Source: a phage. Taken from it: a DNA stretch of 56,697 bases. The stretch lies in the sequence record PZ513998.1. The stretch is one strand, 5' to 3'. The notes under the pieces are model-generated. The model did no database searches. It had not been told where the DNA came from and saw nothing but the letters and a program-made list of their open reading frames with translations. This document shows positions 8,446 to 34,986 of this stretch, piece after piece. Within the stretch, counting starts at the first letter, position 1. Each line of letters begins with the position of its first letter. A program made the translations under genes and the position numbers.

Positions 8446-9051
8446 ATGGCAAAACTTAAACCAGTAAAACGTATTAAACATGAAGGTAAAACAGTAGCGG
8501 TAATCTATGAAGACGGCCACGTCCGAATTGATAATGTTCGCTTGTCATACCCACACTTAGCAACACCACAAGAGGGTGATGACGGCAGTAAAAAGTTCGG
8601 TGCTACATTCTTATTAGACAAGGACATTCATTCTGAAACAGCCGAAGTCTTAAAAGATTTAGCAGCTAAAACAGCGAAAAACGCGAAAGTGAAAGTCCCG
8701 TCATCGAAGTATTTCATCAAAGATGGTGACGAAGAATTTTCGGACAAACCTGAATGTGAAAATATGTTTGTTATCTCCGCCCGGGAAAAGAAACGTCCTG
8801 TTTGTCGAGATGCTGACAAAGAAGAAATCGACGTAGACGATATTGAAGAAATCCTATACGGCGGTTGCTATGTTAGTGCCTTGATTGGTCTTTGGGTTCA
8901 AGATAACAAATACGGAAAACGAGTTAACGCTAACCTCCGTTCAATCAAATTCATCAAAGACGGCGAGCCGTTCGGTGCTGAAAGAATCGATGATTCCGAA
9001 GCGTGGGACGACGAAGACGAATGGGGTGAAGGCGAAGAAGACGACATCTAA
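8446..9051 (+). CDS. DUF2815-like phage ssDNA-binding protein
   Basis: 201 aa; acidic C-terminal tail DDSEAWDDEDEWGEGEEDDI as in SSBs; conserved position between DUF2800-like nuclease and DNA polymerase. Confidence 0.5.
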   Translation: MAKLKPVKRIKHEGKTVAVIYEDGHVRIDNVRLSYPHLATPQEGDDGSKKFGATFLLDKDIHSETAEVLKDLAAKTAKNAKVKVPSSKYFIKDGDEEFSDKPECENMFVISAREKKRPVCRDADKEEIDVDDIEEILYGGCYVSALIGLWVQDNKYGKRVNANLRSIKFIKDGEPFGAERIDDSEAWDDEDEWGEGEEDDI

Positions 9052-10380
9052 ATGGATAAATCATTTTTACATCGACTTATGTTGGCTTGCGAAAATGACG
9101 GACATTCGATATTCGCACCGTCATACTCCGCAACTTGGATGAATTGCCCCGGGTCGCTAGTACCTAGCATCTTGGAGGAAGATTCAGCCGGGTTCGAGGC
9201 AGCCGAGGGAACCATCGCCCACGCTATTGCTGAGGAGTGGTTGAGAACCGGGAACAGGCCCGACCACTTATTAAATACAACTCAGGTACACGAGGAGAAC
9301 GGAAATCGATTCGAGATCCCGGTCGACCACGAAATGTTCGAGTATCTTCAAGAATACATTAAGATGTGCGGTGAGAACAAAGGCGATCAGTTTGTAGAAA
9401 CTAAAGTGTGGTTCACGGACTTAATGCCGATCGCCAACCCGGACGCAGACGAGCTAAACGGGGAAGATGAAAGCCCGATTAAGTTTATCCGACAAGGCGG
9501 TACGTGTGACCACGCTGTATGCCAACCCGGTAAATTAATCATAACCGATTTGAAATACGGGCAATTCATTCACGTTTCTACTGACGACAATACTCAATTG
9601 AAATTGTACGCATACGGATTCTTTAGAGAGTTCGACGAAAAGTATCACTTCGAAGATATAGAGATCCGTATCTGTCAACCGAGAAAATATAATTTTGGCC
9701 GGTTTAAGATGACCCGTTCGGAGATTATCGCTTTCGGGGAGCGAGTGAAAAAAGCCACCAAAGAAGCGTGGAGTATGGACGCTCTACGTTACCCAAGTGA
9801 AAAGGCTTGCGAGTGGTGTAAGATATCCTACAAATGCCCGGCGAACTTCGCAAGAATACTAGATCTCAAGAACGGCAGATACAGCCCTAACCCATTCGGA
9901 TACTCGGCGGACGACATGGCAAGTATAAAAGATCTCCTCAGAGAAGAACTAAATTTACAATTAAAAGAGACTTCCCTATTGACATGGGAGGAAATTTCGT
10001 TAATATACCCACATCGCAAGCCGATAGAGAAGTGGTTCAAAGATGTTGAGAAAGCAGCATCAAAACGGATCATGGAGGGTAAGCCGATAAAAGGCTTGAA
10101 GATGGTAGCGAAAAGAGGGACTCGGCAGTTTGTTGAGGAGTCCACGGCCACGGAAGAACTAGAATTTGTAGGGCTAGACGAAAGTCAAATAAACCCCACA
10201 AAGATGATATCCCCGAAACAGGCCGAAACACTATTGAAAAAGCTAGGATATGATAAAGATGTTGTTAAAAGCATCTTGTCTGACCTGACTTTTACAAAAC
10301 CGGGCGAACCGACGTTAGTTACAGAGGACGACCCACGAAAAGACCTAAACGAGAAGTATCAAGAAGTTTGGGACGATTAA
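9052..10380 (+). CDS. DUF2800-like PD-(D/E)xK (Cas4-like) nuclease
   Basis: 442 aa; N-terminal MDKSFLHRLMLACENDGHSIFAPSYSATWMNCPGS; Cys cluster CEWCKISYKCP; conserved partner of DUF2815 and PolA. Confidence 0.55.
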   Translation: MDKSFLHRLMLACENDGHSIFAPSYSATWMNCPGSLVPSILEEDSAGFEAAEGTIAHAIAEEWLRTGNRPDHLLNTTQVHEENGNRFEIPVDHEMFEYLQEYIKMCGENKGDQFVETKVWFTDLMPIANPDADELNGEDESPIKFIRQGGTCDHAVCQPGKLIITDLKYGQFIHVSTDDNTQLKLYAYGFFREFDEKYHFEDIEIRICQPRKYNFGRFKMTRSEIIAFGERVKKATKEAWSMDALRYPSEKACEWCKISYKCPANFARILDLKNGRYSPNPFGYSADDMASIKDLLREELNLQLKETSLLTWEEISLIYPHRKPIEKWFKDVEKAASKRIMEGKPIKGLKMVAKRGTRQFVEESTATEELEFVGLDESQINPTKMISPKQAETLLKKLGYDKDVVKSILSDLTFTKPGEPTLVTEDDPRKDLNEKYQEVWDD

Positions 10381-10863
10381 ATGTCACAACAAAACGGCGT
10401 TTTAGAAATGTTATTAGCTAGCTTCGCAACTTTAAACGAGAATATCGAGAAGTTAAACGGAAACATCGAAGCGTTGGTAGCTAACGGCGTAGCATCGGGT
10501 AAAACTGAAACTAATGCCGACACTAAAGCTGAAAGCAAATCTGAAACTAAAGCAGAAAGCAAGTCAGAGACTAAGACAGAAGAAAAGAAAGCGGATAAAA
10601 AATCTAATTCTAAAAAATCTGAAAAACAAGCTGACAAGCCGGCGGATAAACCTAAATACACTAAATCAGACATCACCGAAGCGCTTCGCAAAGTTCGAGC
10701 TGATATCGACAAAGAAGAAGCGGTTCGCATCATCAATGAAGTCGGCGGTGTTGAGAAGATGGGCCAGATCCCAGAAGATAAGTATGAAGCTGTTTTCCAA
10801 GCGTGTGAAGCATCTCTTAACGGTGAATCAGATGACGACTCAGGCGATGACGACGATATGTAA
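10381..10863 (+). CDS. hypothetical acidic protein with KSETK repeats
   Basis: 160 aa; repeats ESKSETKAESKSETKTEEKK and Asp-rich C-terminus SDDDSGDDDDM; function unknown. Confidence 0.35.
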   Translation: MSQQNGVLEMLLASFATLNENIEKLNGNIEALVANGVASGKTETNADTKAESKSETKAESKSETKTEEKKADKKSNSKKSEKQADKPADKPKYTKSDITEALRKVRADIDKEEAVRIINEVGGVEKMGQIPEDKYEAVFQACEASLNGESDDDSGDDDDM

Positions 10864-11199
10864 TTGACTGGATTGTCTCGTTTCGACACGGCCTATAATA
10901 CTCGTTATGAAATCCCTGTCAACACCTTTTTGACGAAATTTTTATATCGGGTATCCACCTCAATGTTAGGCCACCCGAAAAGTTTCATTGCCGGTAAGAT
11001 GTTTATCGCCTTTTAGGTGATACTTTTATCCTCTCAACTGATATCGCTCTCAGGTGGCCGTAGATTTAAGTCCGTTCACGTATTGACTTTCTGTTTTAAG
11101 TGGAATATCCCGCGCGTTGACTTATCTATAATTCTTGCGGTATTATCTGCGTCTACCCTCGGGTTAGATTTATCACAACTAAGGAGCAAGTATTTATGA

Positions 11200-14350: not shown

Positions 14351-15090
14351 TAAAAACAATAACTTACCTTGGAACACCTATTGGAACATCAGCCGGCACA
14401 GCAATTTCCTGTGACACACCACCAGCCATGGTAATACCTAAAACGGCGCATAACTATTTGATATTATTACGGAATTACCTAAAATACCGGTCATTACGGT
14501 AAATGATGTCCCCTATTGCTAAAGCCTGTGCGTCGCTCTCCGTGCTTTCTAGAGAAGAATCACTTTTAAATCGAAAAAGGTACTTGGACGAGTTGTCCGG
14601 TTGGGCGGGGGTGCGCAGAGCCGTCTTCCAGAAATTTGTCCGGGATCTGCCATAGATGTTTGGGTGTTCGGGTGGGCGGTGTTGTGGGTTAGATGTGCTT
14701 CAAATTGTAAGCGTGTGCGATTGTGCGAGGCGATCGCGGTGTTAGTTGTCGGTCGTATCCGTTGAGCGGGGGTATAGCGCCTCGGGTGAACACGCCGATC
14801 GGGAACGTCGTTTTTACGTTTTGTGCGGGTGTTCGGGTGTGCGGTTGTACCGCATGACGTTTTTACAAATATAAATGCGGTCGCGCCAGCGCCTACCCAC
14901 CCAACACCACCACCCCAAGCCCTCACTCTCCCCCATTCCCCCCCACCCTATGGAAAATTGCCGTAAAGCCATGTGTTGCGTCCTCAGCGTGTTTTGCCCG
15001 CTAGGTAAGGCCGATGTATTACCTACGATGAGTTATGCCCGTGTGGTTCGATTGAGGGCGGAAGACGGCGCTTTGTTTGTTCCGACTTAA

Positions 15091-15330
15091 ATGAGCATTC
15101 TCAAGATGCTACTCTCCGGTGTGTACAACGTGGGCGCCGTGTGTTTCTTCGGCCTAATTTCGATTTATATTCTCTCGTTCTTTTTCCGCGCCCTACAAAA
15201 CCACGGTTTCGACGGTCTACACCGCACTACGTTAGTTCTCGAATCAATCGGCGCTATCATGATGGTCGTCTTCATGGTTTGCGTTGCGATCTTGGTGTTC
15301 GCCGGAGGCGTCGCCCTAACAATCCGGTAG
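15091..15330 (+). CDS. hypothetical small membrane protein (2 predicted TM helices)
   Basis: 79 aa; hydrophobic stretches GAVCFFGLISIYILSFFF and IGAIMMVVFMVCVAILVFAGGVAL. Confidence 0.3.
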   Translation: MSILKMLLSGVYNVGAVCFFGLISIYILSFFFRALQNHGFDGLHRTTLVLESIGAIMMVVFMVCVAILVFAGGVALTIR

Positions 15331-15909
15331 ATGAGTTGTAACTGTTTCGATCGTATTCAAAAATCGATGGCTGATCGGGTGGCCGGTAAGTTGCCGAACG
15401 GCGCAATAATACACTCGGCGGAGTGGAAAACAGAAGTGTTAGCTATTGAAAATAAAAAGTTGAAAACCCGATATTTTCTAGACTTCACCATAGAGTATCA
15501 AGAGCGTAGACCGGACGGGACGCTCTACTCGACGGTAACAAAATCTGATTTTCCTGTGTTTATGAATTATTGCCCGTTCTGTGGCGTAAAGTTCGAGGAG
15601 GACGAACAAACTCAGGATCAGGAAGACCGTTTTAAATTCCCTGCGCTAGTCTACGTCAAAAATGGAAAAGACCCCATCGCACACACGGGGGCAACGTTAC
15701 AACGAAGTGGGACAGAACACCCTCGCGGAATGTTTGCGGAGTACGTGAACGTGCGAACCAATGAGCGGATTTACTTTTCTGAGTCGTTGATGTCCTCCCG
15801 CCTAGACGGTGGCGATTACGTCGAGATCCCCGACGACTGGGAACAACTCAGCGACTATTGCCAGAAAGACATAATCGCAGAACGAAAAGCACGAGGCGGT
15901 CGAAAATGA
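15331..15909 (+). CDS. hypothetical protein with Cys pairs (CNCF ... CPFCG)
   Basis: 192-aa ORF; possible zinc ribbon; no family recognised. Confidence 0.3.
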   Translation: MSCNCFDRIQKSMADRVAGKLPNGAIIHSAEWKTEVLAIENKKLKTRYFLDFTIEYQERRPDGTLYSTVTKSDFPVFMNYCPFCGVKFEEDEQTQDQEDRFKFPALVYVKNGKDPIAHTGATLQRSGTEHPRGMFAEYVNVRTNERIYFSESLMSSRLDGGDYVEIPDDWEQLSDYCQKDIIAERKARGGRK

Positions 15910-16122
15910 ATGGAAATAATCAACGCTTGGCCGTTTTGTCTCGGTGTCGTTTTGATGGTGTTAGGGTTCGGCGTGGCTGTCCTGTGTATCGTGGGGACGA
16001 ACAAAGCGACCCGAAGCGAAACCTTTGAGAAATTACGCGCTGTAAGTTTAGCCGGAATCACCTTTGTGATGGTGGGCGCGTGTTTCGTCATCTACTCGTC
16101 TGTTAGGAGTCAATTATTATGA
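15910..16122 (+). CDS. hypothetical small membrane protein
   Basis: 70 aa; two hydrophobic helices (WPFCLGVVLMVLGFGVAVLCIV, LAGITFVMVGACFVIY). Confidence 0.3.
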   Translation: MEIINAWPFCLGVVLMVLGFGVAVLCIVGTNKATRSETFEKLRAVSLAGITFVMVGACFVIYSSVRSQLL

Positions 16123-16812
16123 ATGATCGTATTAACTGGTTGTACTCAAAACACGTTTGACATGAAGATCCACACTAAAGCGGGCGCCGTTTTCCATACA
16201 AATATTAGCTTTGAAGATTTCCGCACTAAAGCCAGTGGGGCTTCGTACCACTTGCATAAAATGGGTCATGAACTGGGCGACGTTGAGTCTCTTGGCATGG
16301 TTCCGGAAGATAGGTTTAACCGTGTGCGCTTTTGGGCGCATGGCATGGAAAAGCTGATCGTAGCGCATAATACCGGCTTTCACTCGTTCGACTTTCTCCA
16401 CGTTGATTTATTGCCGATAAATACACTACTAGGTGAGGTCAAAACGCCGTTAATCATTCCGTCGTTGATTGGTGGCGTGAATCTCGGCACATGGAAAAAC
16501 GATTGTTATTTAATTACCTCACCCTTGGCGAAAGATAACGGTAAATCGGTTCTAGTATGTCAAGGGGAGAAAGTTCTAGAGGACGAGGAACTAACGCAAT
16601 CAGAGCTAGACGCGGGGGAGAACTTGAACACACTCACCGTATTAACTGACCTGCAAACACTCCGCCAGCCTTACCTAGTCAGCGATGGCGATTTATTTTG
16701 CGACCAGTTCGATTCTAGCGTGGGGATTGTGTTAAACGTTGTCGCGGACACCTACGGGGATATTGTCATTAACCCACACGGAATAGCAAATACTCAATTT
16801 ATGGATCGCTAG
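16123..16812 (+). CDS. hypothetical protein
   Basis: 229-aa ORF; no motif recognised. Confidence 0.3.
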   Translation: MIVLTGCTQNTFDMKIHTKAGAVFHTNISFEDFRTKASGASYHLHKMGHELGDVESLGMVPEDRFNRVRFWAHGMEKLIVAHNTGFHSFDFLHVDLLPINTLLGEVKTPLIIPSLIGGVNLGTWKNDCYLITSPLAKDNGKSVLVCQGEKVLEDEELTQSELDAGENLNTLTVLTDLQTLRQPYLVSDGDLFCDQFDSSVGIVLNVVADTYGDIVINPHGIANTQFMDR

Positions 16813-17613
16813 ATGAAAAAGATTACTATCGGTGCTTCAGAACGTGCGGAATTACGTCAAATTTGTAACGTTATCAAAGCTAATCCTACGCACTATGAAA
16901 CGGTTACTTACACGAATAAAGACGCGACCGCATCTATCAAAGTTAAATATTCCGCCGGCGAAAAACTAACGTATAAAGCCTTTATCACCGTTATCGTGGG
17001 CGAGAAAGTGGCAACCGAAACCGTAGAAGCCGGAAGTTTTAATATCGTCGAGAACAAGATCCGTGCGTGTGGTTCTGTTGACTACTTGACCGAGTTATCA
17101 AATAAAACCGTATCCCTAGATAAACCGCTTCACGTATCATTGCGTAAATCAATGCAACCAAGCGCACAGCAACGTAGAGGAATCAAGGAGATGACGCGTA
17201 AAGCGGAGAAAGCCGACCCATTGGATTTAGTGCTTATGGATAGCCTCTTGATCGTTCGCAAGTCGTTTGGTGTCGTATATCGTGGCCAAGTTCTAAACTT
17301 CAAAAGTGCTATAAACAATCAAGGGGCGATCAAGATTATCGTGTCTATAAATACGATGTTTAATAACGACTTACAATATGTGTGGTCAATGATATACACC
17401 CTCGACCGTTTGGCCTACGATATACGCAATGGGAACCTCGCCATTCTATCGCATAGTGCGCCGACGAAAGTTTTACGGGTGTACGGTTGGCGCGGTGACT
17501 ATGAGACTATCGCAGTAAACCAGAAAGCCCGACTGTCATCAGTGATCGAGAATTTCATGATTGAGGGTGGTTCTCGTCGCATTGAGTTTCGCCCGTTACC
17601 TCAAAGAAACTAA
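16813..17613 (+). CDS. hypothetical protein
   Basis: 266-aa ORF. Confidence 0.3.
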   Translation: MKKITIGASERAELRQICNVIKANPTHYETVTYTNKDATASIKVKYSAGEKLTYKAFITVIVGEKVATETVEAGSFNIVENKIRACGSVDYLTELSNKTVSLDKPLHVSLRKSMQPSAQQRRGIKEMTRKAEKADPLDLVLMDSLLIVRKSFGVVYRGQVLNFKSAINNQGAIKIIVSINTMFNNDLQYVWSMIYTLDRLAYDIRNGNLAILSHSAPTKVLRVYGWRGDYETIAVNQKARLSSVIENFMIEGGSRRIEFRPLPQRN

Positions 17614-17835
17614 ATGAAGCCGGTAAATAATCCAACCTTGGATAAGACGATCGAGATTTACCAAGAGCGAGGCGAAAATATTTATTACGTTGTTGCGGGC
17701 GGTGTATGGATCGGGACGATTGCCAAGACACCACACCACCTCAAGCCGTGGACTTTCTGCGGGCAAGGTGTGAGCCTTGGCGGGGATTCCTTGGAAATGG
17801 TTAAAAAATCCGTGGTTACGATGCTCACACGGTAA
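17614..17835 (+). CDS. hypothetical protein
   Basis: 73-aa ORF. Confidence 0.25.
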   Translation: MKPVNNPTLDKTIEIYQERGENIYYVVAGGVWIGTIAKTPHHLKPWTFCGQGVSLGGDSLEMVKKSVVTMLTR

Positions 17836-18477
17836 ATGAGACGCGTTGATCCTAAAGACTGTTTAGACATAATCCTAAACTACCATTATGCGAAACGTCG
17901 ACCTAGCATATCTTACGCTTTCGGGTTCTTCGAAGACGAGGAGCTTGTCGGGGTTCTAACTATCGGTAAGCCGGCCAGCAACCCGCTATGTGTTGGAATA
18001 TTGGGCGAGGAGTACAAAAGCCACGTTTTTGAGTTAAACCGACTTTGTTTTATTCGTCCAATCCGTAACGCTCCGTCGCAGTTGATCGCCTTCGCTATGG
18101 CTGAGTTGAAAAGTGAAAACCTTGTCATCGTGTCGTATGCGGATCGCGGTATGAACCACAACGGATATATTTATCAAGCGTCTAATTTCATCTACACGGG
18201 GGCGACGAAAGCGCGCACCGATAAATACACGGAGCAAGGTAAACACTCTCGGCATTATCAAGGAAAGGAAAGCAAGACGTATCGACAAGTCAGAACATCT
18301 AAGCATCGTTACGTTTATTTTACGGGGAGCCGTTCGGTCGTGAAGAAGTATAAAAAGTTGCTTCGATATCCGGTATTGCCTTATCCCAAGGAAGAAAATA
18401 AAAATTATGTGCTCGGATCCGAGTACAAGCAAGAACTCGTTAAGATTAAAGGGGGAGAAAATGAAGCCGGTAAATAA
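17836..18477 (+). CDS. hypothetical protein, possibly GNAT-fold / Mom-like modification enzyme
   Basis: 213 aa; pattern NYHYAKRRP...YAFGFF...GVLTIGKPASNPL...ELNRLCF...LVIVSYAD...HNGYIYQASNF recalls acyltransferase-like phage proteins; recall-based and weak. Confidence 0.25.
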   Translation: MRRVDPKDCLDIILNYHYAKRRPSISYAFGFFEDEELVGVLTIGKPASNPLCVGILGEEYKSHVFELNRLCFIRPIRNAPSQLIAFAMAELKSENLVIVSYADRGMNHNGYIYQASNFIYTGATKARTDKYTEQGKHSRHYQGKESKTYRQVRTSKHRYVYFTGSRSVVKKYKKLLRYPVLPYPKEENKNYVLGSEYKQELVKIKGGENEAGK

Positions 18478-19218
18478 ATGACTTTCATTTCTAACGTTGT
18501 AACCGATAACAGCCCTTTTGATATGCCCGAAAGTGTTCGTAATTATATTTTGACAGTTAACCCTCGCGCCAAGGTGGGCGATGTTAAAACATTATCGGGG
18601 GCGATAGCATTAATTGCGGATTTCGATAAATTCATTCCACTAGCACGTTACCTATTTGAGAGCGTCGAGGTGAGCGTGTTCGATCATGGTGCGAGCTGTC
18701 ATATGGCCAATGATGCGGACTTATCCGCACGAACTATCGCCGTAATGAAAGCGCTGGGGTTCTCTTTAGACCTTGATAAATCTCACGGAGCGACAACATT
18801 TGCGAAAACAATCGACGGGAAAGAATTAAAAGCCATATTTTTTAGCCGTGGCGAAGAAGCCGAAGGTTGGGACATAACTTTCACGATCGGCGGGTGTGTG
18901 ACGCTTAAACGTAACGCGGTTAGCGATTTAGACGCCTTGATCTTGGCGTCACTCCCTGAAAGTTTCGACACAATGCGCCCACTGTTAGACGGCCTGTCAA
19001 GCCTTGGTTTCGAAGTGAACAACGAAGCATCAGTTGACGGGCTTACAGTGTTCTACTGCGAAGACGACGGGCGAGAAATCCACGTGAAAGATGGCGACGT
19101 GTTCGGGCATTTTTTCGCGGTCTACTTCGTTGATGGTAAAGACGTTGCGATACGCGCGAATCGTCCGGCCGAAATTATTGTTCGTGACGCCTCAGAATCG
19201 TGGACGTGGGAGGGTTAA
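18478..19218 (+). CDS. hypothetical protein
   Basis: 246-aa ORF. Confidence 0.3.
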   Translation: MTFISNVVTDNSPFDMPESVRNYILTVNPRAKVGDVKTLSGAIALIADFDKFIPLARYLFESVEVSVFDHGASCHMANDADLSARTIAVMKALGFSLDLDKSHGATTFAKTIDGKELKAIFFSRGEEAEGWDITFTIGGCVTLKRNAVSDLDALILASLPESFDTMRPLLDGLSSLGFEVNNEASVDGLTVFYCEDDGREIHVKDGDVFGHFFAVYFVDGKDVAIRANRPAEIIVRDASESWTWEG

Positions 19219-19285
19219 GTGAGTAATATAATACTACCGCTTTCAGGTGTCAACAAGTTTTTTATAAATATTTTAGGCAATAAAA

Positions 19286-19327
19286 AACCTCTTACCGTGG
19301 CACCGAATAAGAGGTTTTAGTTGTTTT
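19286..19327 (+). terminator. intrinsic terminator-like hairpin (AACCTCTTA / TAAGAGGTT stem, 13-nt loop) followed by a T-rich run
   Basis: perfect 9-bp inverted repeat at 19286-19294 and 19308-19316, then TTTTAGTTGTTTTC; lies just after ORF 18478-19218. Confidence 0.5.
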
Positions 19328-19404
19328 CATGTTTTCAAATCAAGGCTATATTAACGGATATTTTTCAACTTGTAAACAATAAATTTCTCAGCGGAAAAGA
19401 AAAA

Positions 19405-19422
19405 AGCCCGCATATACGGGCT
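19405..19422 (-). terminator. hairpin AGCCCG-CATATA-CGGGCT preceded by an A-run (terminator-like on the minus strand)
   Basis: 6-bp stem, 6-nt loop; AAAAGAAAAA immediately upstream on +, i.e. a T-run after the hairpin on the minus strand. Confidence 0.35.
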
Positions 19423-19425
19423 TAA

Positions 19426-19995
19426 ATGGCAGAATTAGCATACACTAAAGCGTCTATCTTCCAATCTATCGTTGATGATGTTAGTACGGGTCTACCTAAA
19501 GGAACTTCATTAGATACCCGCGGAGATTTCGAAAATCAATTACGCGACCTTTTCGAAGAAAATAATCTTATGAATGCGCCGGAATGTATCAGCGTCGACT
19601 ACTTCGGGGAAGCATGGGAGATCGTCCAGTCTAGCGAGTTTGATTCTGTTGAGCTAGAAACGCCTTTAGATTTCAGCGGGTGCAAAAGTTCATTAAAATG
19701 TTTGATGATGGAAGCTAACGCATTAATAAGCGCGTCTTGGCGTGAACAAGTGGAAGCCTACATCGAAGAACTGGCCGAAGCACTGGAAGAAGTTGTCGAG
19801 GGTTGCGAGGAGTTCGGAACAATCGACGAACTGGTAATCACTGGCGGGTGCCGTTTCGGTCACATTCCACACCTAAGAGAGTTCGATGCTGGCGACTTTT
19901 CTGTGTGCATGTGGGCGCCGAACGAAGCCGGAGAGTCTGAAATTTATTATAATTTCCGAGGTCTGGAACTGCGCGGGGTTGTATATCATGGGTAA
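19426..19995 (+). CDS. hypothetical acidic protein
   Basis: 189-aa ORF. Confidence 0.3.
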   Translation: MAELAYTKASIFQSIVDDVSTGLPKGTSLDTRGDFENQLRDLFEENNLMNAPECISVDYFGEAWEIVQSSEFDSVELETPLDFSGCKSSLKCLMMEANALISASWREQVEAYIEELAEALEEVVEGCEEFGTIDELVITGGCRFGHIPHLREFDAGDFSVCMWAPNEAGESEIYYNFRGLELRGVVYHG

Positions 19996-20373
19996 GTGGA
20001 CGGTGTGACATACTTTTCATCAGTTCCTAAAGATACCAATTCACGCCGGGCGAGATCCCGGCTTTCTTCGTTCTTGAGTCCGCACGAAAAAGAGTTACAA
20101 CTATCTACGCACGACATACAGACTATTTTAAACCTAGCTAATGCGTTTTACTTCCGAGCTGATCCGGAGAGTAAACCGGCTTACTCAGACAACAAAACTA
20201 TTGTAAGCCTTCGCATATCCGGAATAGTCGAAGATGATCGGGGCTGGCTCATTATCCGCCGGCATTTCCTTAATTCTGGTCAGTGCTGGAAGACGTTGCA
20301 CTTAGAGGTTATTTTTACCCACATAGAAAATCTGACCTTATGTGAGTGTAAAATTCCCTATTTCCCCGATTGA
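19996..20373 (+). CDS. hypothetical protein
   Basis: 125-aa ORF, GTG start. Confidence 0.25.
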   Translation: MDGVTYFSSVPKDTNSRRARSRLSSFLSPHEKELQLSTHDIQTILNLANAFYFRADPESKPAYSDNKTIVSLRISGIVEDDRGWLIIRRHFLNSGQCWKTLHLEVIFTHIENLTLCECKIPYFPD

Positions 20374-20565
20374 ATGATGAAGAATAAAATCACATTAAAC
20401 AGCGGTATGATTTTAATCGCTGACGACGAAAAAGTTACGGTAAACGCAGACGGTTCGCTATTCTGTCCGGCGTGGGATATGCGCTTTATGTTAACTCGTA
20501 ACATTTCATATAATCGAACGGTTACACATCGAGAGGTGAAAAGTTTTGAGCGATTATACAGTTGA
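20374..20565 (+). CDS. hypothetical protein
   Basis: 63-aa ORF. Confidence 0.2.
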   Translation: MMKNKITLNSGMILIADDEKVTVNADGSLFCPAWDMRFMLTRNISYNRTVTHREVKSFERLYS

Positions 20566-20808
20566 ATGGCTAAGAAATTAAATAATTTAGAGGCTCGCGG
20601 GGCGTTTGGTTTTGTCGTCGCGTCTCTTTGTGCGGTAGGGTTCGCGGGGGCGGTGGGAACTTTGGCCGTATATGGTGATCTAACCGTCGCGCGTTTCTGT
20701 CTTTATGGGGTAGCGTTTGGGGTGGTCGGCGGGATTGCGTGGCCTGATCAGGAGAGCGGGGAGGCGTTTATATCTGCGATACGTGGGGGCGGTAATGATG
20801 AAGAATAA
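20566..20808 (+). CDS. hypothetical small membrane protein
   Basis: 80 aa; Gly/Ala-rich hydrophobic helices (FGFVVASLCAVGFAGAVGTLAVYG, VAFGVVGGIAW). Confidence 0.25.
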   Translation: MAKKLNNLEARGAFGFVVASLCAVGFAGAVGTLAVYGDLTVARFCLYGVAFGVVGGIAWPDQESGEAFISAIRGGGNDEE

Positions 20809-21135
20809 ATGAGCAAACAAATTCCTTTCGATCTTTTCCGTTCTGCGCATCGTCTGACTGTCACAGGGATCGAGGCGAACTATGAGCAATATGTCGTTCT
20901 CTCCCATAAAGCCGACGCGGATTATCTGGAAAAGTTCATCGATAACTTATTGAATGATTTCCCTTTCCCTGTTGCGATATCAGAAGAAAGAGTGAGTAGC
21001 CCGTCTTCTGTAATTATCCGGTCGGGCTTGATGGTGTCCGAGATTAAAAAGGATATAAAAAGCGGTAAGGTGGCTAATATGTATTTATCGGAGCCGGTTC
21101 GAACTCGCAACGATAATATTATTATTCACCCGTAA
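20809..21135 (+). CDS. hypothetical protein
   Basis: 108-aa ORF. Confidence 0.25.
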   Translation: MSKQIPFDLFRSAHRLTVTGIEANYEQYVVLSHKADADYLEKFIDNLLNDFPFPVAISEERVSSPSSVIIRSGLMVSEIKKDIKSGKVANMYLSEPVRTRNDNIIIHP

Positions 21136-21204
21136 ATGTATGTACGGGCGCACCGGTGGGCGCGTTTCCTTTGTTCCGTCAGAATTTTTATAGATAAAAA
21201 CTTG

Positions 21205-21233
21205 TTGACACCGGCCCGAGGTGTTGCTAATAT
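21205..21233 (+). promoter_or_regulatory. sigma70-like promoter candidate (TTGACA - 17 nt - TAATAT)
   Basis: consensus -35 TTGACA at 21205-21210, 17-nt spacer, -10 TAATAT at 21228-21233. Confidence 0.45.
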
Positions 21234-21262
21234 TCTCAGCACACAAACAAACTGATTGTACT

Positions 21263-29466: not shown

Positions 29467-29931
29467 ATGAAATTAGTATACATAGCTGGCCCATACCGCG
29501 CAGACACCAAAGAGGGCGTGGCTGAAAATATCCGTAAGGCACAAGTAATCGGGCTATCTCTAACCACCAACGGACATACATTAGGGGTATTCCCCGTGAT
29601 CCCTCACATGAATACGGCGCACTTTGAGACCCACACTTTAACCGTATCACAAAAATTCAGCGCTTTTATTGAGCCGGTGCCAGATGAATACTGGCTACAA
29701 GGAACAATGGCATTGATGGAAAAATGCGATGCGGTTTTATTGACGCACCCACAAGCCGGCATAACAAGCAAGGGAACGCGGGCGGAGGTTATGCGCGCTA
29801 TTGAGTTGGGTATTCCTGTTTATGACCACATAAACGGTCTACTATCTGACCTTAGAGACGAATCAACGCCTCTACGAAGTATTAATGTTTTGAATGACAA
29901 GCGAGAATTTCTCGGGGCGGTTGATGAGTGA
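29467..29931 (+). CDS. nucleoside 2-deoxyribosyltransferase-like protein (DUF1937/DUF4406-type)
   Basis: 154 aa; N-terminal KLVYIAGPYRAD and C-terminal CDAVLLTHPQAGITSKGTRAEVMRAIELGIPVYD typical of this Rossmann-like family. Confidence 0.45.
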   Translation: MKLVYIAGPYRADTKEGVAENIRKAQVIGLSLTTNGHTLGVFPVIPHMNTAHFETHTLTVSQKFSAFIEPVPDEYWLQGTMALMEKCDAVLLTHPQAGITSKGTRAEVMRAIELGIPVYDHINGLLSDLRDESTPLRSINVLNDKREFLGAVDE

Positions 29932-29969
29932 ATGACAAGCGAGAATTTCTCGGGGCGGTTGATGAGTGA
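29894..29969 (+). repeat. perfect tandem duplication, 2 x 38 bp (ATGACAAGCGAGAATTTCTCGGGGCGGTTGATGAGTGA)
   Basis: copy 1 at 29894-29931 is the 3' end of ORF 29467-29931; copy 2 at 29932-29969 is the 5' end of the next frame-1 ORF, read in a different codon phase. Confidence 0.9.
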
Positions 29970-30147
29970 TGTAGCGTACTTAATAGTCGTTGCGATGTGT
30001 GCCTTAGTTATAACACTAGGGATACGGAAATAAATGCCCCTTTACTTTATTATCAAAACCGGCAAGACCGCTCACCGTCTTCACCACCCCAACCGCACAA
30101 CCTTTGTCCTAGGCAGTTATGAAATAAAACTTGGTCGGCCGTTTTAG

Positions 30148-30402
30148 ATGTCCTTTTGGGCTAAAATCAAGGCGATGGCTCTAGGGGTCGTCGCCTTTTT
30201 TGTCCTCCTATTCCTAACGTGGCGTAAAGGAAAACAGGACGGAAAGAACGAGAAAGTTATCGAAGATATTATCGATAACCATATTGAACAAGAACGAGTT
30301 AATGAGGTAAAACAAGATGTCGATTCGGGGATTAATAGCTTACCGGACGGCGGTAGTTCTGATCGTCTTCGCAGTGGTTGGTTGCGTAAAGACCGTAAAT
30401 AA
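30148..30402 (+). CDS. putative lysis-associated membrane protein (holin- or spanin-like)
   Basis: 84 aa; single N-terminal TM helix (AMALGVVAFFVLLFLTW) then charged helical tail; next to putative lysin. Confidence 0.3.
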   Translation: MSFWAKIKAMALGVVAFFVLLFLTWRKGKQDGKNEKVIEDIIDNHIEQERVNEVKQDVDSGINSLPDGGSSDRLRSGWLRKDRK

Positions 30403-31107
30403 ATGGCGAATTTAAAGCCTAAAGGTATCAGACAAAATAACCCGGGTAACTTGGAGTGGGGATCTCCTTGGCAGGGGCTAGTACCGAAAGCGGAGAGAAC
30501 GTCTCCTCGCTTTTGTGAATTCGTAAATCCGGTTTATGGTATTCGTGCGATCGCAGTAACGTTAATCACGTATTACGATAAGCGCAAATCAAAGAACGGC
30601 TCTCGCATCGACTCCGCGCGTGAAATCGTTGAGCGTTGGGCGCCGGGGTCGGAGAAAGGGAATAATACCAACGTATACGCTAAAAACTTAGCAGACCTAC
30701 TAGGCGTTGGCCCGGACGACGAAGTTATCGATATGCACGACTACGACCAGTTGTTTTTATTGGTGTCAGGCATCATCGGTACAGAAAACGGCTTCAATGG
30801 GCCACTCAAAGGCAAAACGGTAAACACTTGGTATTCTGACGAGACTATCGAAGAAGCCCTCCGTATGGCCGGGGTGACTAAGAAACCGAAAGTCGTTAAT
30901 TCTACTGCAACCGTAGCAGCCGGCACCGCAGCACTAGGCGTCGCTCAGTTGGTTGAGGTCGTCCAGCCGGTCAAGGAGGCGGTACACAATGCCTCGGGAG
31001 ACCTTTCATCTGGCGACTACGCTAGAATCTTCCTCGGCGTCGCCACCGTCGGGATCGGGATTTACCTCGGCTATGTCCGCTACCGTAAATTCAAATTGGG
31101 GCAGTGA
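30403..31107 (+). CDS. putative cell-wall hydrolase (endolysin-like) with C-terminal membrane anchor
   Basis: 234 aa; N-terminal IRQNNPGNLEW motif; C-terminal hydrophobic helix RIFLGVATVGIGIYLGYV; flanked by small TM proteins. Confidence 0.3.
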   Translation: MANLKPKGIRQNNPGNLEWGSPWQGLVPKAERTSPRFCEFVNPVYGIRAIAVTLITYYDKRKSKNGSRIDSAREIVERWAPGSEKGNNTNVYAKNLADLLGVGPDDEVIDMHDYDQLFLLVSGIIGTENGFNGPLKGKTVNTWYSDETIEEALRMAGVTKKPKVVNSTATVAAGTAALGVAQLVEVVQPVKEAVHNASGDLSSGDYARIFLGVATVGIGIYLGYVRYRKFKLGQ

Positions 31108-31422
31108 ATGGCGGGTAGAGATGGAGGTACGGGAGGCGTTCGCATTGACTTGGCGATCAATATCCCGACTATCCTTTCGCTAATAGCAGCGTTGTGTAGC
31201 GGTATAATGTGGGTTAATAACCAGTTTAGCAATGTTAGAAACGATGTTTTGTTGGTCACGGCTGACGTTAGAGTCCTAGAACAACGAACAACGCAAGCCG
31301 AGCGGGAAATCGCCGATATAAAACATAATACCGCACAACAAATAAACCAGTTTCGAGGTGAAGTTCGCGAAGACCTTAGAGACATTAAAACTAGCGTTCA
31401 AAAACTCGCAGATAAAAAATAG
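31108..31422 (+). CDS. membrane-anchored coiled-coil protein (spanin-like)
   Basis: 104 aa; TM helix IPTILSLIAALCSGIMWV followed by heptad-like charged helix. Confidence 0.3.
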   Translation: MAGRDGGTGGVRIDLAINIPTILSLIAALCSGIMWVNNQFSNVRNDVLLVTADVRVLEQRTTQAEREIADIKHNTAQQINQFRGEVREDLRDIKTSVQKLADKK

Positions 31423-33408
31423 ATGGCAGTCAACGCAAGGAACACTTCGCGGGCTGTCGTTTATCAGATCTTGCCTGACTTTAGGGCAAGGTCTACCCAC
31501 CGGAATGTTCTATATCAGGTCTCCGCGAAACTGCGTTTTCGGTCGCAGCACCGAAACGTGGTCTACCAAATACCGCCATTTCGTGCTAGGTCGGTCGTTT
31601 CTAATATAGTATATAGTACCGATTCAACTGCAAGAACGGTAATTACTGTCCCACAAGCGCTAAACCAAGTTGTCTATAACACGTCGTACCAGTTTGAGAT
31701 TTCAAACAATATCATTGGTGGGGTAATAAATACCGCGACCTATTCATGGGTTGAAGCGTTGCCGATCTCTAAACTTGATGTGAAGTCTTTTACGCAACTG
31801 GTGGTCGTTGGTACGGAATACGACACTACGTCCATGAAGTTTATCGGGCAAAACGTCCACCTCGTAAACCAAGGGCTACCGCAACCCCGCCCGGTCGATA
31901 CATGGTCGAACACGGAGATGGGTTCCGAGGTTATGCTCGTTTGTCAGTCTTTGGATATCGAATATATCCCGAGATCCGGGGTTGACTCTCCTAGCGTTGT
32001 ATCGTTGGTTTCCTACTCATCTCCGATAAAATGGGAGACAAGACCGGCTGACGTCGGTACGGTAACACATTTAGCATCGGTTCCGACGGATTTGTTCGGC
32101 CTCCCTAACTCTTTCACATCTTCCGGGAGTGTCGTTCAATTGTCGTCGTACCCGTCCACACCTCCGGCACGAGTAGGGGTTGAAAACGTCCCTCAGATTG
32201 TCAGTTTAGCCTCGATACCGGTAGGCGATGATCCGACCGTCGGAGTGGAGAAATCGTCTCAGGTTTTCACTCAAGCGATTCTGTCATCGGATTATGTATA
32301 TCCGCAATCCGATACTGATGTCGGCCAAGTTTTATTGTCACAAGTTGAGTCGGTCATTGATGAACTACCGATTTCCCCGGAGGACGTTAGTTCCGTTGTG
32401 TCCTTATCGGCGATTGGGGTCGACGCAACATGGAGTTGGTCAGATATATCTTCACCGTCAGTTAATATTTTGGCCGTACAAGATAGCCCGCAACCTCCGC
32501 TAGAGTCGTACTTCGTTTTAAATGCGGTAGGGTCTGCTACGGTGGCGATGTTATTAGAATCGGACTTCGGGCCGGCACACAAAGACAGTTACACCGAAAC
32601 GTATTCCGTACCGATCCTATCGTTGATGACTGCGCCTAAACGGTTTTACCCGCCTCTTGATAACGTGGTAGAACTTGAGAAAGGAAACCATGTTACTCAA
32701 TACGTTACGTCTACTGCGATGAAACGTGACGACGGTATGCCGATATCTACGGAAGATGTCGCCTCACTATCCATTGTTTCCGGGATAAAATCTCCGATGC
32801 CAACTCCGGACGAAGTTGCGAGGAAAGGCGACTTTATTTCGGGCCTATCGCAACACACCATGGTTACGAGTTCGTTCCCGTCTACGGAAGAACCTCAGAG
32901 TTATGTTGAAACGGGTAGTTTAGCTAAAAATATCGCGGTAACGGCATCGTACCCTGATATTCGTCTACCGATGACAGTTGGCCAAACGGACTTAGTAGCA
33001 TTTAATATCGCTAACTCGGTTGACTACCCGCCGGTGAAATCGTTTTTAATGTATGATTTCGCGGGATTAGTAACACAAAATATCGCGTGTAAGGCTAACT
33101 ATTTGCCCGCAAATACGCTAAACTCCTTATCGTTGACGACACAAACTTCGGCTAACGTTGCGTTCTCGGCCAGATACCCTGATAAAAGTACGGTTTATTC
33201 GCGAATTAATTCCGCTCAGGTTTCATCTTCGCTGGCAACGGTAGCTGAGTACCCGGATAAAGACTCAGTTCTTTCAGACATAAAGTCTACGTCCGTGTAT
33301 CAAAATGTTGTGCGCGTCGATTCTTCGTTATATCACATGCCACACCCACCGCAGAGACATCGCGTTAGGATCGTGTGTAAGATGATATATGGATATAAGA
33401 ACCGATAA
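31423..33408 (+). CDS. repeat-containing tail fibre-like structural protein
   Basis: 661 aa; N-terminal repeated RNVxYQ motif and recurring xYPD/YPP motifs; Ser/Thr/Val-rich; sits in tail-fibre position. Confidence 0.4.
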   Translation: MAVNARNTSRAVVYQILPDFRARSTHRNVLYQVSAKLRFRSQHRNVVYQIPPFRARSVVSNIVYSTDSTARTVITVPQALNQVVYNTSYQFEISNNIIGGVINTATYSWVEALPISKLDVKSFTQLVVVGTEYDTTSMKFIGQNVHLVNQGLPQPRPVDTWSNTEMGSEVMLVCQSLDIEYIPRSGVDSPSVVSLVSYSSPIKWETRPADVGTVTHLASVPTDLFGLPNSFTSSGSVVQLSSYPSTPPARVGVENVPQIVSLASIPVGDDPTVGVEKSSQVFTQAILSSDYVYPQSDTDVGQVLLSQVESVIDELPISPEDVSSVVSLSAIGVDATWSWSDISSPSVNILAVQDSPQPPLESYFVLNAVGSATVAMLLESDFGPAHKDSYTETYSVPILSLMTAPKRFYPPLDNVVELEKGNHVTQYVTSTAMKRDDGMPISTEDVASLSIVSGIKSPMPTPDEVARKGDFISGLSQHTMVTSSFPSTEEPQSYVETGSLAKNIAVTASYPDIRLPMTVGQTDLVAFNIANSVDYPPVKSFLMYDFAGLVTQNIACKANYLPANTLNSLSLTTQTSANVAFSARYPDKSTVYSRINSAQVSSSLATVAEYPDKDSVLSDIKSTSVYQNVVRVDSSLYHMPHPPQRHRVRIVCKMIYGYKNR

Positions 33409-34986
33409 ATGTTGACGGGAGGTTATAGCGATGAAAGTTGGTTGCCTGACGATTCTTACGCTCCTAATGGCTCTCTAGACGTATCTAAGATCCCGCTATT
33501 CACGGTAGATAGTCGTGGCTTATTTAATGGCGGTAATACTGGGGCTATGTTGTATACTTTTAGAGCTTCCGGCCTCTATGCTCCCGTATCCGCACCGTGG
33601 TCGCCTAGCTACCCTTTCGGGTATCCGTTCAATAGTCCGAGTATTCGACCGGAGTTATCCCCGAGCGGTTTTTCTATTGTACCTTGCCCGACTAGACCCG
33701 GAAGAAAGCGCTTCATGTTCCCCGGAAAAAAGATGGTCGGTAGACCCCTTACTTCTACAAGTAGCAGTGATAACTGGTCGGGGTCTCCTAACTGCTTCTC
33801 AATTCGCTATCGCATTCCTAGACCGTCGGTATCGGCTCCGGCAGGGCGTCAAACTAGCATATCTTTTGTAGCTAGATTTAATAGACGTACGGATAAGACC
33901 ACTAGACTAGCTTGGTATTTTTCTGTCGGATACCCGTCGATTAAGGTTCGACCGGGATACCAAACTAACTGGAGGAATTATGGGCTATCCAGTTTATGTC
34001 CGGGGTTCTTCGCTAGTTATATAATTTTTGGGAGTTCTAAACGTATAAATCTAGGGTCAGGAACACCGGGAGATACGGAGACTTGCACTTATTCAGATGG
34101 TCTTCCGTGGGTGTGCTTAAGACCTAACAACGAATTAGCTACGGATATACCCAACCCGACGGTACCGGGGAGAGACGGTCATTTTTTCAAATTTGAGTTC
34201 GACCGAGATTACCATATAGAAATTTTGTTGAGGATAAACTCCGCTACAAACAATTATGTAACTCGACCCTCCGTGAAAGTATTCATCGATGGGGAACCCG
34301 TCAGCAGTTGGAACGTTTCTGGAGCCAATGACGAGTTCTGGATTCCGCCCGAGGATACGTCAAATTTAGCTACTTCGGATCGGGTAAACTCAGAGAACTT
34401 TCTTACAGGGTTGCAGTTTAATTTTCAGATGAATCATAAGTACAACGTGTCAGTTTACCCGACGTATCACTATCCGGAGATGGCGGAGGAGTCCGGCCCG
34501 GTATTGATTAGTGATATCGTGGTAGGGGAGTCCAGTGCTTCCGACGGAGAAGTTGTCTTCGGGCCGTCAACTCGCGTATGGGGAGACGCTCCTAACTCGG
34601 ATATCGAGACATCATTCAAACGGCCACAAAGTTTCGATTCTAATGCTAGCGTGGTTGGTGCCCCCATGGGGTCGAATGTTGTTGATGAGGGGGCCGAGTT
34701 ATCCGGTGGGGCTGGAGACCGAGACATGTATAAAACCGATGGTAGTTCTATGCCGGATTTCGCCGGGAATATCTTAGGAGTTCAAGTAAAATCGATAGTT
34801 CGTGCCCCGTCCGCTGACGGCGAGGTCGTATCGCTACTAGGAGAAAGAGAATTGGGGTCTACCGAACTAAAGGCTTCGAATGGCGGGCGCTATTCGTCCG
34901 TAGCTCACACGATTACTTATACAACCCCCACCTCTCCTGAAGAAATATCCAATACTGCTTACGGTATATCAGTGAAAGAGGTATAA
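33409..34986 (+). CDS. putative tail fibre / receptor-binding structural protein
   Basis: 525-aa ORF adjacent to fibre-like genes; no catalytic motif recognised. Confidence 0.35.
   Translation: MLTGGYSDESWLPDDSYAPNGSLDVSKIPLFTVDSRGLFNGGNTGAMLYTFRASGLYAPVSAPWSPSYPFGYPFNSPSIRPELSPSGFSIVPCPTRPGRKRFMFPGKKMVGRPLTSTSSSDNWSGSPNCFSIRYRIPRPSVSAPAGRQTSISFVARFNRRTDKTTRLAWYFSVGYPSIKVRPGYQTNWRNYGLSSLCPGFFASYIIFGSSKRINLGSGTPGDTETCTYSDGLPWVCLRPNNELATDIPNPTVPGRDGHFFKFEFDRDYHIEILLRINSATNNYVTRPSVKVFIDGEPVSSWNVSGANDEFWIPPEDTSNLATSDRVNSENFLTGLQFNFQMNHKYNVSVYPTYHYPEMAEESGPVLISDIVVGESSASDGEVVFGPSTRVWGDAPNSDIETSFKRPQSFDSNASVVGAPMGSNVVDEGAELSGGAGDRDMYKTDGSSMPDFAGNILGVQVKSIVRAPSADGEVVSLLGERELGSTELKASNGGRYSSVAHTITYTTPTSPEEISNTAYGISVKEV

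Follow-up and report, generated by a model that had tools for sequence, protein, structure and literature searches.

The lysis cassette of the Chi-like Escherichia phage E21 and its predicted Enc34/M4Lys-type endolysin with a C-terminal membrane domain

Results

Three abutting genes and their native order

The window (the whole stretch of 56,697 nucleotides of phage DNA that was analysed) carries three abutting open reading frames on the + strand, at 30148-30402, 30403-31107 and 31108-31422, coding for proteins of 84, 234 and 104 aa, respectively. Conserved homologues of all three were found in 150 to 690 phage records, and these ORFs are therefore genuine genes and not chance ORFs. Over all three genes the window is a 100% match to Escherichia phage E21 (NC_052983.1), while being collinear with no natural genome, as each minus-strand CDS block of E21 was flipped individually to + and the intergenic DNA was trimmed. 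Since the window is strand-normalised, its gene order and overlaps are not to be trusted, and the order seen here is a construction artefact. In E21, DanisaurMW and Chi, transcription runs from the 104-aa gene through the 234-aa and 84-aa genes to an overlapping o-spanin gene, the reverse of the order in the window. Thus, from the arrangement outlined in the original prediction, the three abutting ORFs stand, while the order was made by the window and the fourth gene, the o-spanin, was missed. The parts are as follows, in native order, with window coordinates first and E21 coordinates in brackets:

31108-31422, + strand: 104-aa 'lysis protein B', putative holin-like (E21 gp42, 32858 to 32544; first native cassette gene)
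30403-31107, + strand: 234-aa predicted Enc34/M4Lys-type endolysin (E21 gp41, 32533 to 31829; 7Q47, phrog_873)
30403-30891, + strand: predicted enzymatically active domain of the endolysin, residues 1-163 (PHA02564 family; 7Q47 alignment)
30904-30972, + strand: proximal weakly hydrophobic segment of the endolysin, residues 168-190, TATVAAGTAALGVAQLVEVVQPV (KD19 1.59; Gly/Ala/Ser/Thr-rich)
31015-31104, + strand: predicted distal TM helix of the endolysin, residues 205-227, and basic tail RYRKFKLGQ (hydropathy, conservation, AF2)
30148-30402, + strand: 84-aa predicted i-spanin (E21 gp40, 31829 to 31575; third native cassette gene)
30317-30402, + strand: 5' 28 codons of the predicted o-spanin, MSIRGLIAYRTAVVLIVFAVVG followed by CVKTVN (translation; in another frame, within the i-spanin gene)
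30053-30145, - strand: 3' 30 codons and stop of the predicted o-spanin (left on the opposite strand by the construction of the window)

In native E21, the cassette genes directly follow the tail genes on one strand, the 104-aa gene ends 10 nt upstream of the endolysin gene, and a terminator-like hairpin lies immediately past the o-spanin stop. Each of the four has its homologue among chi_002 to chi_005, and the native order is identical. This would place the cassette at the end of a late operon, after the tail genes, with a putative bidirectional terminator behind the o-spanin. For these genes, the annotation of E21 already gives endolysin and spanins.

The endolysin's catalytic domain

Residues 5-163 of the 234-aa protein matched the Enc34 catalytic domain (PDB 7Q47, 7q47_A; phmmer, E=9.1e-53), the same entry was the sole match of the AF2 model in a Foldseek comparison with the PDB (TMt 0.85-0.89), and in PHROGs the protein matched the endolysin family phrog_873 (1.4e-67). 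Scans of the protein against Pfam and NCBIfam found no family; its PHA02564-type domain is absent from Pfam and was identified via PHROGs and the PDB sequence search. The family search called for in the original prediction thus led to an endolysin. The modelled catalytic domain is all-helical with an alpha-lobe lysozyme-like fold (pLDDT 87-97 over residues 21-160). W79, Y92 and E128 are 100% conserved in 121 full-length homologues and correspond to the Enc34 catalytic signature W79/Y95/E131 (PMC8943055). The N-terminal stretch (...GIRQNNPGNLEWGSPWQG), a motif of which had been tied to cell-wall hydrolases at the outset, belongs to this Enc34-type domain and holds the residues G8, R10, N13, P14, G15, N16, G20, W23, Q24 and G25, which are invariant among 63-121 homologues.

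At least 80% of the protein is covered by matches in 182 phage records, and its architecture recurs in 120 or more full-length clusters with lengths of 230-260 aa. Chi-group proteins, including 'lysis protein A' of Chi, are ~57% identical over the full length, TMD and basic tail included. By homology and modelling, the 234-aa protein is identified as an Enc34/M4Lys-type endolysin with a PHA02564 domain and a C-terminal membrane domain. M4Lys (Salmonella phage BSPM4; Bai et al. 2020, PMC7143992) is a homologue of the Enc34 enzyme according to PMC8943055, and its activity was followed as GlcNAc release by mass spectrometry (PMC7143992). The PHA02564 glycosidase domain of the E21 endolysin most likely acts as an N-acetylglucosaminidase, in which E128 would be the catalytic acid.

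The same domain ('V virion protein') also occurs in tape-measure, tail-injection and internal virion proteins (phrog_2276, phrog_7182, phrog_992), in Gp29 of 9vvp (1295 aa), in T7-like internal virion proteins and in a Mu-like 'structural protein', and NO16 GP11, which was detected in virions, carries it as well. Together with the native position of the gene next to the tail genes, on the same strand and downstream of them, this distribution would fit a virion-associated hydrolase acting on peptidoglycan at entry, with the true endolysin encoded elsewhere, as had been raised as an alternative from the beginning. However, the 234-aa protein is a stand-alone protein with a membrane domain and not a domain within a large structural protein, and in every relative examined its gene lies between a holin-like gene and overlapped spanin genes; spanin genes are its neighbours in native E21, DanisaurMW, Chi and pJN2-26. 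Furthermore, its homologues lyse cells from within (PMC7143992), and no other endolysin candidate was found in the Enc34 genome by its authors (PMC8943055). We therefore regard a role in entry as extremely improbable for this protein, yet the description is apt for other proteins with the PHA02564 domain.

A C-terminal membrane domain without N-terminal signal

The hydrophobic helix at the C-terminus, already recognised in the original prediction, was located at residues 205-227 (best KD19 window 1.62), followed by RKFKLGQ, and AF2 modelled a helix at residues 205-232. Residues 168-190 form another hydrophobic stretch, which is weaker (KD19 1.59) and has a Gly/Ala/Ser/Thr (GAST) fraction of 0.48, compared with 0.30 in the distal helix, and a net charge of -1. 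The hydrophobic C-terminal segments and the basic tail are conserved family-wide, with a median of 3 K/R and 0 D/E in the tail and a net charge of -1 in the loop between the helices. At the level of single residues, Q182 (99%) and G179 (84%) are conserved in the proximal segment, S203-G204 just ahead of the distal helix is invariant, and G212 is conserved inside it. The AF2 model has low confidence in this domain (pLDDT 36-69, below 50 over 166-187, with 166-201 as the low-confidence region) and did not contain a clear C-terminal hairpin, so that it is uncertain whether the proximal segment is a TM helix. Similarly, the proximal helix of M4Lys was called a TMD by some predictors only (PMC7143992).

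By hydropathy, residues 1-36 are free of any hydrophobic stretch, and the lone peak in the N-terminal half (37-55, KD19 1.37) coincides in part with helix 43-65 in the core of the folded domain. As it has no N-terminal hydrophobic stretch, the protein falls outside the SAR endolysins. Instead, the net +4 tail and the short, slightly acidic loop would favour an N-in/C-in hairpin, which would insert without Sec, and the signal-less enzyme would build up tethered at the cytoplasmic face of the inner membrane.

M4Lys alone lyses E. coli in an azide-insensitive manner, its deltaTMD variant does not lyse cells in vivo, yet degrades peptidoglycan as a purified protein, removal of the last 13 residues abolishes lysis, and the TMD alone is bacteriostatic (all PMC7143992). 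For Enc34 ORF39, the deltaC protein is muralytic and the full-length protein toxic (PMC8943055). From these two enzymes we infer muralytic activity and TMD-dependent lysis for the E21 endolysin. Weighed against the hairpin was a SAR-like arrangement, in which only the distal helix would cross the membrane. The tail would face inward and the catalytic domain would already sit in the periplasm, inactive at the membrane, until a pinholin-like 104-aa protein depolarises the membrane and so frees or activates it, as in signal-anchor-release endolysins, though from the other end of the protein. The basic tail and the Gly/Ala-rich, weakly hydrophobic segments do resemble SAR domains, the proximal TM helix is unsupported by AF2, Phobius and Phyre2 gave N-out for M4Lys (PMC7143992), and the possibility was raised by the Enc34 authors themselves (PMC8943055). 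Nevertheless, it would require that a folded N-terminal domain of ~165-200 aa is exported by a C-terminal signal, for which there is no known pathway (PMC8943055), and the lack of an N-terminal signal, the azide-insensitive lysis by M4Lys and the observation that lysis was no faster with co-expressed lysis protein B (PMC7143992) all speak against it. In our view, this topology is unlikely for the E21 enzyme, and the hairpin is preferred.

The spanin pair

In agreement with the initial reading, an N-terminal TM segment of the 84-aa protein was located at residues 7-25 (KD19 2.22), and a charged helical domain follows. The protein matched phrog_1026 'Rz-like spanin' (1.2e-16) and chi_004 of Chi (35% identity, E=3e-18), which identifies it by homology as an i-spanin of the Chi family with a predicted periplasmic helical domain. 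The i-spanins of Chi and Enc34 are listed in a single family, and for both phages the spanin genes were described as overlapped pairs (PMC6139136). Correspondingly, native E21 contains a 79-aa ORF (31660 to 31421) that shares 86 nt with the end of the i-spanin gene, with a lipoprotein signal and lipobox (...FAVVG, then Cys23) and 56% identity to the 'putative Rz1' of Chi (E=2e-22). This fourth cassette gene is thus a predicted lipoprotein o-spanin. It is intact in native E21 only, because the window splits the gene and lacks ~20 of its middle codons (59 nt, E21 31516-31574).

The 104-aa 'lysis protein B'

The 104-aa protein consists of a TM segment at ~15-33 (KD19 1.99) and a helical, coiled-coil-like domain of ~65 aa, as predicted for this neighbour of the lysin. 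It matched phrog_7686 (2.8e-43) and 'lysis protein B' of Chi (chi_002; 29% identity, E=4e-20), and homologues are present in 154 phage records. The family alignment has an invariant D14/N18/P20/T21 within the motif DLxINxPT. A homologue search gave four close relatives and an exhaustive HMMER search 25; among the HMMER matches, five long repeat proteins were rejected as spurious, with the match confined to ~8-43, around 'DLTINxPT' (the literal motif was checked in one of them, P0016). In native E21, an in-frame ATG lies 10 codons upstream of the start used here, and a Shine-Dalgarno-like GGGGG precedes the downstream ATG.

Being small, with one TMD and a charged C-terminus, and encoded beside the endolysin, the protein fits the layout of a holin, and homologues have been named putative holin (PMC8943055, PMC6498227). 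In BSPM4, however, lysis protein B (ORF_37) was non-toxic, did not rescue deltaTMD M4Lys, brought about no release of the soluble EAD and slightly delayed lysis (PMC7143992), data that by analogy argue against a canonical holin for the 104-aa family. In PHROGs and RefSeq, the 104-aa protein goes under 'Rz-like spanin'. The 84-aa protein has the same label, and one of the two in the cassette is probably wrong.

An obligate pairing of the 104-aa family with the TMD-endolysin was considered and found to be unsupported. In SSU5-like pJN2-26, its place is taken by a 107-aa protein that is unrelated and carries its TMD at the C-terminus, and Aeromonas phage phiWae15 has endolysin and spanins with no small TM gene upstream and with multi-TMD holin-like genes downstream. 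The holin partner is thus interchangeable among lineages that keep the endolysin and the spanins, which is consistent with a membrane-access function of the endolysin itself.

We also asked how the protein compares with the releasin of phage Mu (gp25, DUF2730), which would make it a membrane-tethered cytoplasmic factor freeing the membrane-bound endolysin with no holin involved. Size and architecture are alike (an N-terminal TMD and a helical domain of ~70 aa), the Siskin homologue has a predicted N-out/C-in topology (PMC6498227), and the non-toxicity of the BSPM4 homologue (PMC7143992) can be counted in the same direction. A weak, nearly full-length match to Pfam DUF2730 (E=0.06; residues 18-100, aligned to 6-89 of the 102 positions) and a single BLASTP comparison with Mu gp25 (E=0.003) point the same way. 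Yet, with 13.9 bits, the DUF2730 (PF10805) match falls short of the gathering cut-off (24.9), E<0.1 to DUF2730 was reached by no more than 6 of 23 members of the family, with generic coiled-coil families doing as well, and co-expressed lysis protein B delayed M4Lys lysis instead of promoting it (PMC7143992). When alignments were built for the 104-aa and Mu gp25 families and their profiles compared, hhalign returned a probability of 14.8%. Homology to the releasin was consequently rejected and is kept as an architectural analogy only; a releasin-like role is very unlikely.

Discussion

Taken together, the E21 cassette is very likely the lysis module of a Chi-like siphophage (Casjensviridae, Lavrentievavirus) with an endolysin of the Enc34/M4Lys type that would act by the mechanism set out here. 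The original prediction of a lysis cassette built around a C-terminally anchored lysin with two single-TM flanking proteins is borne out by the match to 7Q47 and by the homology to the Chi i-spanin and lysis protein B. Its remark that this is not the canonical arrangement was correct as well, with the architecture being published since 2019 and hence already known from Siskin (2019), M4Lys (2020) and the crystal structure of Enc34 (2022).

In the proposed mechanism, the membrane domain of the tethered endolysin would be holin-like, causing growth arrest alone and lysis when joined to the enzyme. Triggering by this domain or by the partner protein would breach the membrane beside the enzyme, which would then cut the murein, and the pair of i- and o-spanin would subsequently disrupt the outer membrane. 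The probable part of the 104-aa protein is to set or delay the time of lysis, and not to serve as a large-hole holin required for export. Taking this one step further, the endolysin could be a natural holin-endolysin fusion with a C-terminal hole-former, and the 104-aa protein a new timer or antiholin acting on that domain, which we put forward tentatively, as a possibility that is still rather doubtful. Holin- and Sec-independent lysis was demonstrated for M4Lys only and would apply to E21 by homology, and holin-independent lysis may also be an over-expression artefact (PMC8943055).

The closest described system is Hafnia phage Enc34 (Cernooka et al. 2022, PMC8943055), where ORF39 (PDB 7Q47) is ~50-60% identical to the E21 catalytic domain and likewise ends in a two-segment membrane domain, and where ORF38-41 share the E21 layout of a ~12 kDa single-TMD protein, endolysin, i-spanin and overlapping lipoprotein o-spanin. 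E21 differs in belonging to another genus (Lavrentievavirus), and its enzyme lacks 3 residues behind the WAP motif and has small loop differences. With the SAR endolysins (P1 Lyz, phage 21 R21), the E21 endolysin shares the predicted membrane tether, muralytic function and a Gly/Ala-rich, weakly hydrophobic segment, and for both types holin-independent lysis may be possible on over-expression. In contrast to them, its anchor is C-terminal and not N-terminal, there is no Sec-type signal, and the PHA02564 fold is unrelated to their T4-lysozyme-like fold, so that it is no member of the SAR class. The spanins resemble the lambda Rz/Rz1-type and Chi-family pairs (Kongari et al. 2018, PMC6139136) in combining a TMD i-spanin with a lipoprotein o-spanin; they are homologous to those of Chi, and their genes overlap, at the 3' end of the one for the i-spanin, without being embedded. 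At 84 aa and, for the mature lipoprotein, ~57 aa, both proteins are very short. The Mu releasin gp25 (DUF2730) is similar to the 104-aa protein in size and in its TMD-plus-helical layout, while homology is unsupported (14.8%).

In conclusion, the E21 locus adds one member to a known family, and what was gained beyond this are corrections, namely a window recognised as strand-normalised, a doubtful 'Rz-like spanin' label and a fourth cassette gene. Few endolysin architectures of phages with Gram-negative hosts are non-canonical, and the original prediction recognised one of them from the bare sequence. The mechanistic question that this architecture raises, by which route a signal-less, C-terminally anchored enzyme gains the periplasm and what role its 104-aa partner has, is already present in the literature. 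If the endolysin were indeed a holin-endolysin fusion, Chi-like phages would lyse their hosts without a free-standing holin.

The endolysin and its membrane domain

The three ORFs agree in coordinates and hydropathy with the proteins of the original prediction, and hydropathy places hydrophobic segments in all three:

30148-30402, + strand: 84-aa i-spanin ORF (ORF listing)
30403-31107, + strand: 234-aa endolysin ORF, abutting both neighbours (ORF listing)
31108-31422, + strand: ORF of the 104-aa protein (ORF listing)

The proposal of a lysis cassette around a C-terminally anchored lysin is borne out by Chi-type neighbours and by a PDB sequence search, in which residues 5-163 of the 234-aa protein matched the crystallised catalytic domain from the Enc34 endolysin (7Q47, E=9.1e-53). 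While profile scans of Pfam and NCBIfam returned no model for this protein, PHROGs assigned it to phrog_873 'endolysin' (1.4e-67). Its AF2 model, based on 63 homologues, reached pLDDT 87-97 over residues 21-160, with 7q47 as the sole match in the PDB (TM 0.85-0.89). Glu131, Trp79 and Tyr95, singled out by the Enc34 authors (PMC8943055), correspond to E128, W79 and Y92, which are invariant in 121 full-length homologues. The N-terminal motif taken as the mark of a wall hydrolase (G8, R10, N13-N16, G20 and W23-G25) proved to be the most conserved block of the endolysin family.

Hydropathy analysis of the 234-aa protein detected no N-terminal hydrophobic segment and two C-terminal hydrophobic stretches, residues 168-190 and 205-227, followed by RKFKLGQ. 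The first stretch is weak (48% Gly/Ala/Ser/Thr), and AF2 placed helices at 183-199 and 205-232 with low confidence (pLDDT < 50 over 166-187), so that segment 168-190 is only a candidate membrane span. Coverage of the query reaches 97-100% in at least 120 protein clusters (230-260 aa), and 182 phage records have matches spanning 80% or more of the protein. Conservation of C-terminal residues throughout the family (G179, Q182, A193, S203-G204 and G212) and of the basic tail (median three K/R, zero D/E) points to a specific membrane module and not a generic anchor.

This architecture is real, unusual and already described. An endolysin with two C-terminal transmembrane domains (TMDs) was first reported in the 2019 genome announcement of phage Siskin (PMC6498227), and in 2022 the Enc34 study presented a crystal structure, showed that the complete protein is toxic and described the same module of four genes, its authors stating that the export mechanism is unknown (PMC8943055). 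For M4Lys, the endolysin of Salmonella phage BSPM4 (2020), the full-length protein is enough to lyse E. coli and azide does not block lysis; the protein lacking the TMD is muralytic in vitro and does no harm in vivo, the TMD by itself is bacteriostatic, removal of the 13 C-terminal residues abolishes lysis, and mass spectrometry indicated N-acetylglucosaminidase activity (PMC7143992).

The same domain also occurs within tape-measure, tail-injection and internal virion proteins and in NO16 GP11, which was detected in virions, as would fit the suggestion that the 234-aa protein is a virion-associated wall-degrading protein. That suggestion is not supported, however, as the protein stands alone within a lysis cassette, carries a membrane domain and has homologues that lyse cells from within.

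Native gene order and the spanin pair

In megablast searches, Escherichia phage E21 (MN604053 / NC_052983.1; Casjensviridae, Lavrentievavirus) matched at 100% identity, and approximately 28 Proteus, Salmonella and Providencia relatives matched at 96-99%. Over the three-gene stretch each match was broken into three pieces, because every minus-strand CDS-sized block of E21 had been flipped to the plus strand in place, as BLAST comparison of the entire window with E21, block after block, demonstrated; plus-strand genes were unaltered and intergenic DNA was mostly trimmed. Example stretches of such flipped blocks (BLAST against NC_052983.1) are:

547-10864, now + strand
14503-21255, now + strand
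30147-56697, now + strand

Former minus-strand operons consequently read backwards in the window and have lost their gene overlaps; the steadily climbing cumulative GC skew fits this strand normalisation. In E21, DanisaurMW and Chi, transcription runs from the tail genes to the 104-aa gene, across a 10-nt gap to the 234-aa gene, and with a 1-nt overlap to the 84-aa gene, the reverse of the window. The original arrangement thus stands for its three ORFs and fails in gene order, and it missed a fourth gene, that of the o-spanin.

Within the native 84-aa gene of E21, at 31660, begins an ORF in a different frame that extends to 31421 (-) and encodes 79 aa (MSIRGLIAYRTAVVLIVFAVVG/CVKTVNNPSF...) with a lipoprotein signal and lipobox VVG/C. 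This protein shares 56% identity with the 'putative Rz1' of Chi and is annotated as o-spanin in DanisaurMW; it is unannotated in the RefSeq E21 record. Intact in native E21 only, it is split in the window and its middle is missing:

30317-30402, + strand: first 28 codons of the o-spanin (translation)
30053-30145, - strand: last 30 codons of the o-spanin (translation)

The 84-aa protein has a single N-terminal TM segment (residues 7-25, hydropathy), 35% identity to Chi chi_004 and a match to phrog_1026 'Rz-like spanin', and its overlap with a lipoprotein gene supports the i-spanin call. Chi and Enc34 share one i-spanin and one o-spanin family, with overlapped gene pairs (Kongari et al., PMC6139136).

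A terminator-like hairpin on both strands follows the o-spanin stop (E21 31392-31410). Compared with E21, window spacer 29932-30147 duplicates 38 nt of the deoxyribosyltransferase gene 3' end, has a 12-nt deletion removing half of the bidirectional terminator hairpin, and lacks E21 31516-31574 (59 nt). The adjacent ORF (29467-29931) encodes a nucleoside 2-deoxyribosyltransferase-like protein (phrog_355, 1.4e-20; DUF7768, 2.6e-6), natively the last gene of an operon converging on the cassette. On the other side, ORFs 31423-33408 (661 aa) and 33409-34986 (525 aa) compare with E21 gp43 (616 aa) and gp44 (546 aa); the gp43 block carries 135 nt of upstream spacer, in-frame and open, and the gp44 block is 63 nt short at its 5' end relative to the annotated gene. 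Both encode tail-region proteins of unknown function (phrog_7226; weak matches only for the 525-aa protein).

The 104-aa partner protein

A single TM segment (residues ~15-33, hydropathy) in the 104-aa protein is followed by a helical domain with weak matches to many coiled-coil families. The protein shares 29% identity with 'lysis protein B' of Chi and has homologues in 154 phage records; D14, N18, P20 and T21 are invariant in the family alignment, forming a DLxINxPT motif at the TMD start. PHROGs and RefSeq label the 84-aa and 104-aa proteins alike as 'Rz-like spanin', probably a mislabel for the latter. Homologues were called putative holins in the Enc34 and Siskin papers (PMC8943055, PMC6498227), and the Siskin authors, who predicted that it lies N-out/C-in, put it forward as a 'class IV' holin (PMC6498227). 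The BSPM4 homologue is non-toxic, does not rescue the M4Lys TMD deletion and slightly delays lysis (PMC7143992). Naming of the family is inconsistent, with 'putative endolysin 2' or 'lysis protein B' used elsewhere. A Mu-type releasin (DUF2730) was rejected (weak Pfam match; 14.8% probability in profile-profile comparison).

At E21 32859-32888 (-), the 104-aa gene has a further in-frame ATG 10 codons ahead of its start (MDIRTDNGGNMAGRD...), overlapping the gp43 end, and the DanisaurMW annotation has the longer form; this may represent a dual start, as proposed for Enc34 ORF38.

The same TMD-endolysin and spanins are accompanied in the SSU5-like Klebsiella phage pJN2-26 (L006 1155-1478) by an unrelated 107-aa partner with a C-terminal TMD, and in Aeromonas phage phiWae15 by two multi-TMD ORFs downstream of the spanins (L007 2864-3465), with no small TM gene upstream. 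Such variation of the partner between lineages fits an endolysin with its own membrane-access function.

Possible mode of action

Homology and conservation show that the module combines an endolysin of the glycosidase type with a two-component spanin and a small partner that has one TMD. A short, slightly acidic loop is a feature of Sec-independent hairpin inserters. We favour an N-in/C-in hairpin for the endolysin, because of the missing signal peptide, the basic tail, such a loop and azide-insensitive lysis; the chief competing model has an N-out, SAR-like tether that depolarisation would free. In the hairpin model the enzyme would be tethered, with the membrane domain providing holin-like permeabilisation beside it, which would explain why the TMD alone arrests growth and its fusion to the enzymatically active domain lyses, a pattern resembling that of a holin without and with its endolysin. 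In this model the 104-aa protein would tune lysis timing. The remaining interest of the locus lies in the mechanism of export and timing, for which it offers no easier access than the published systems.
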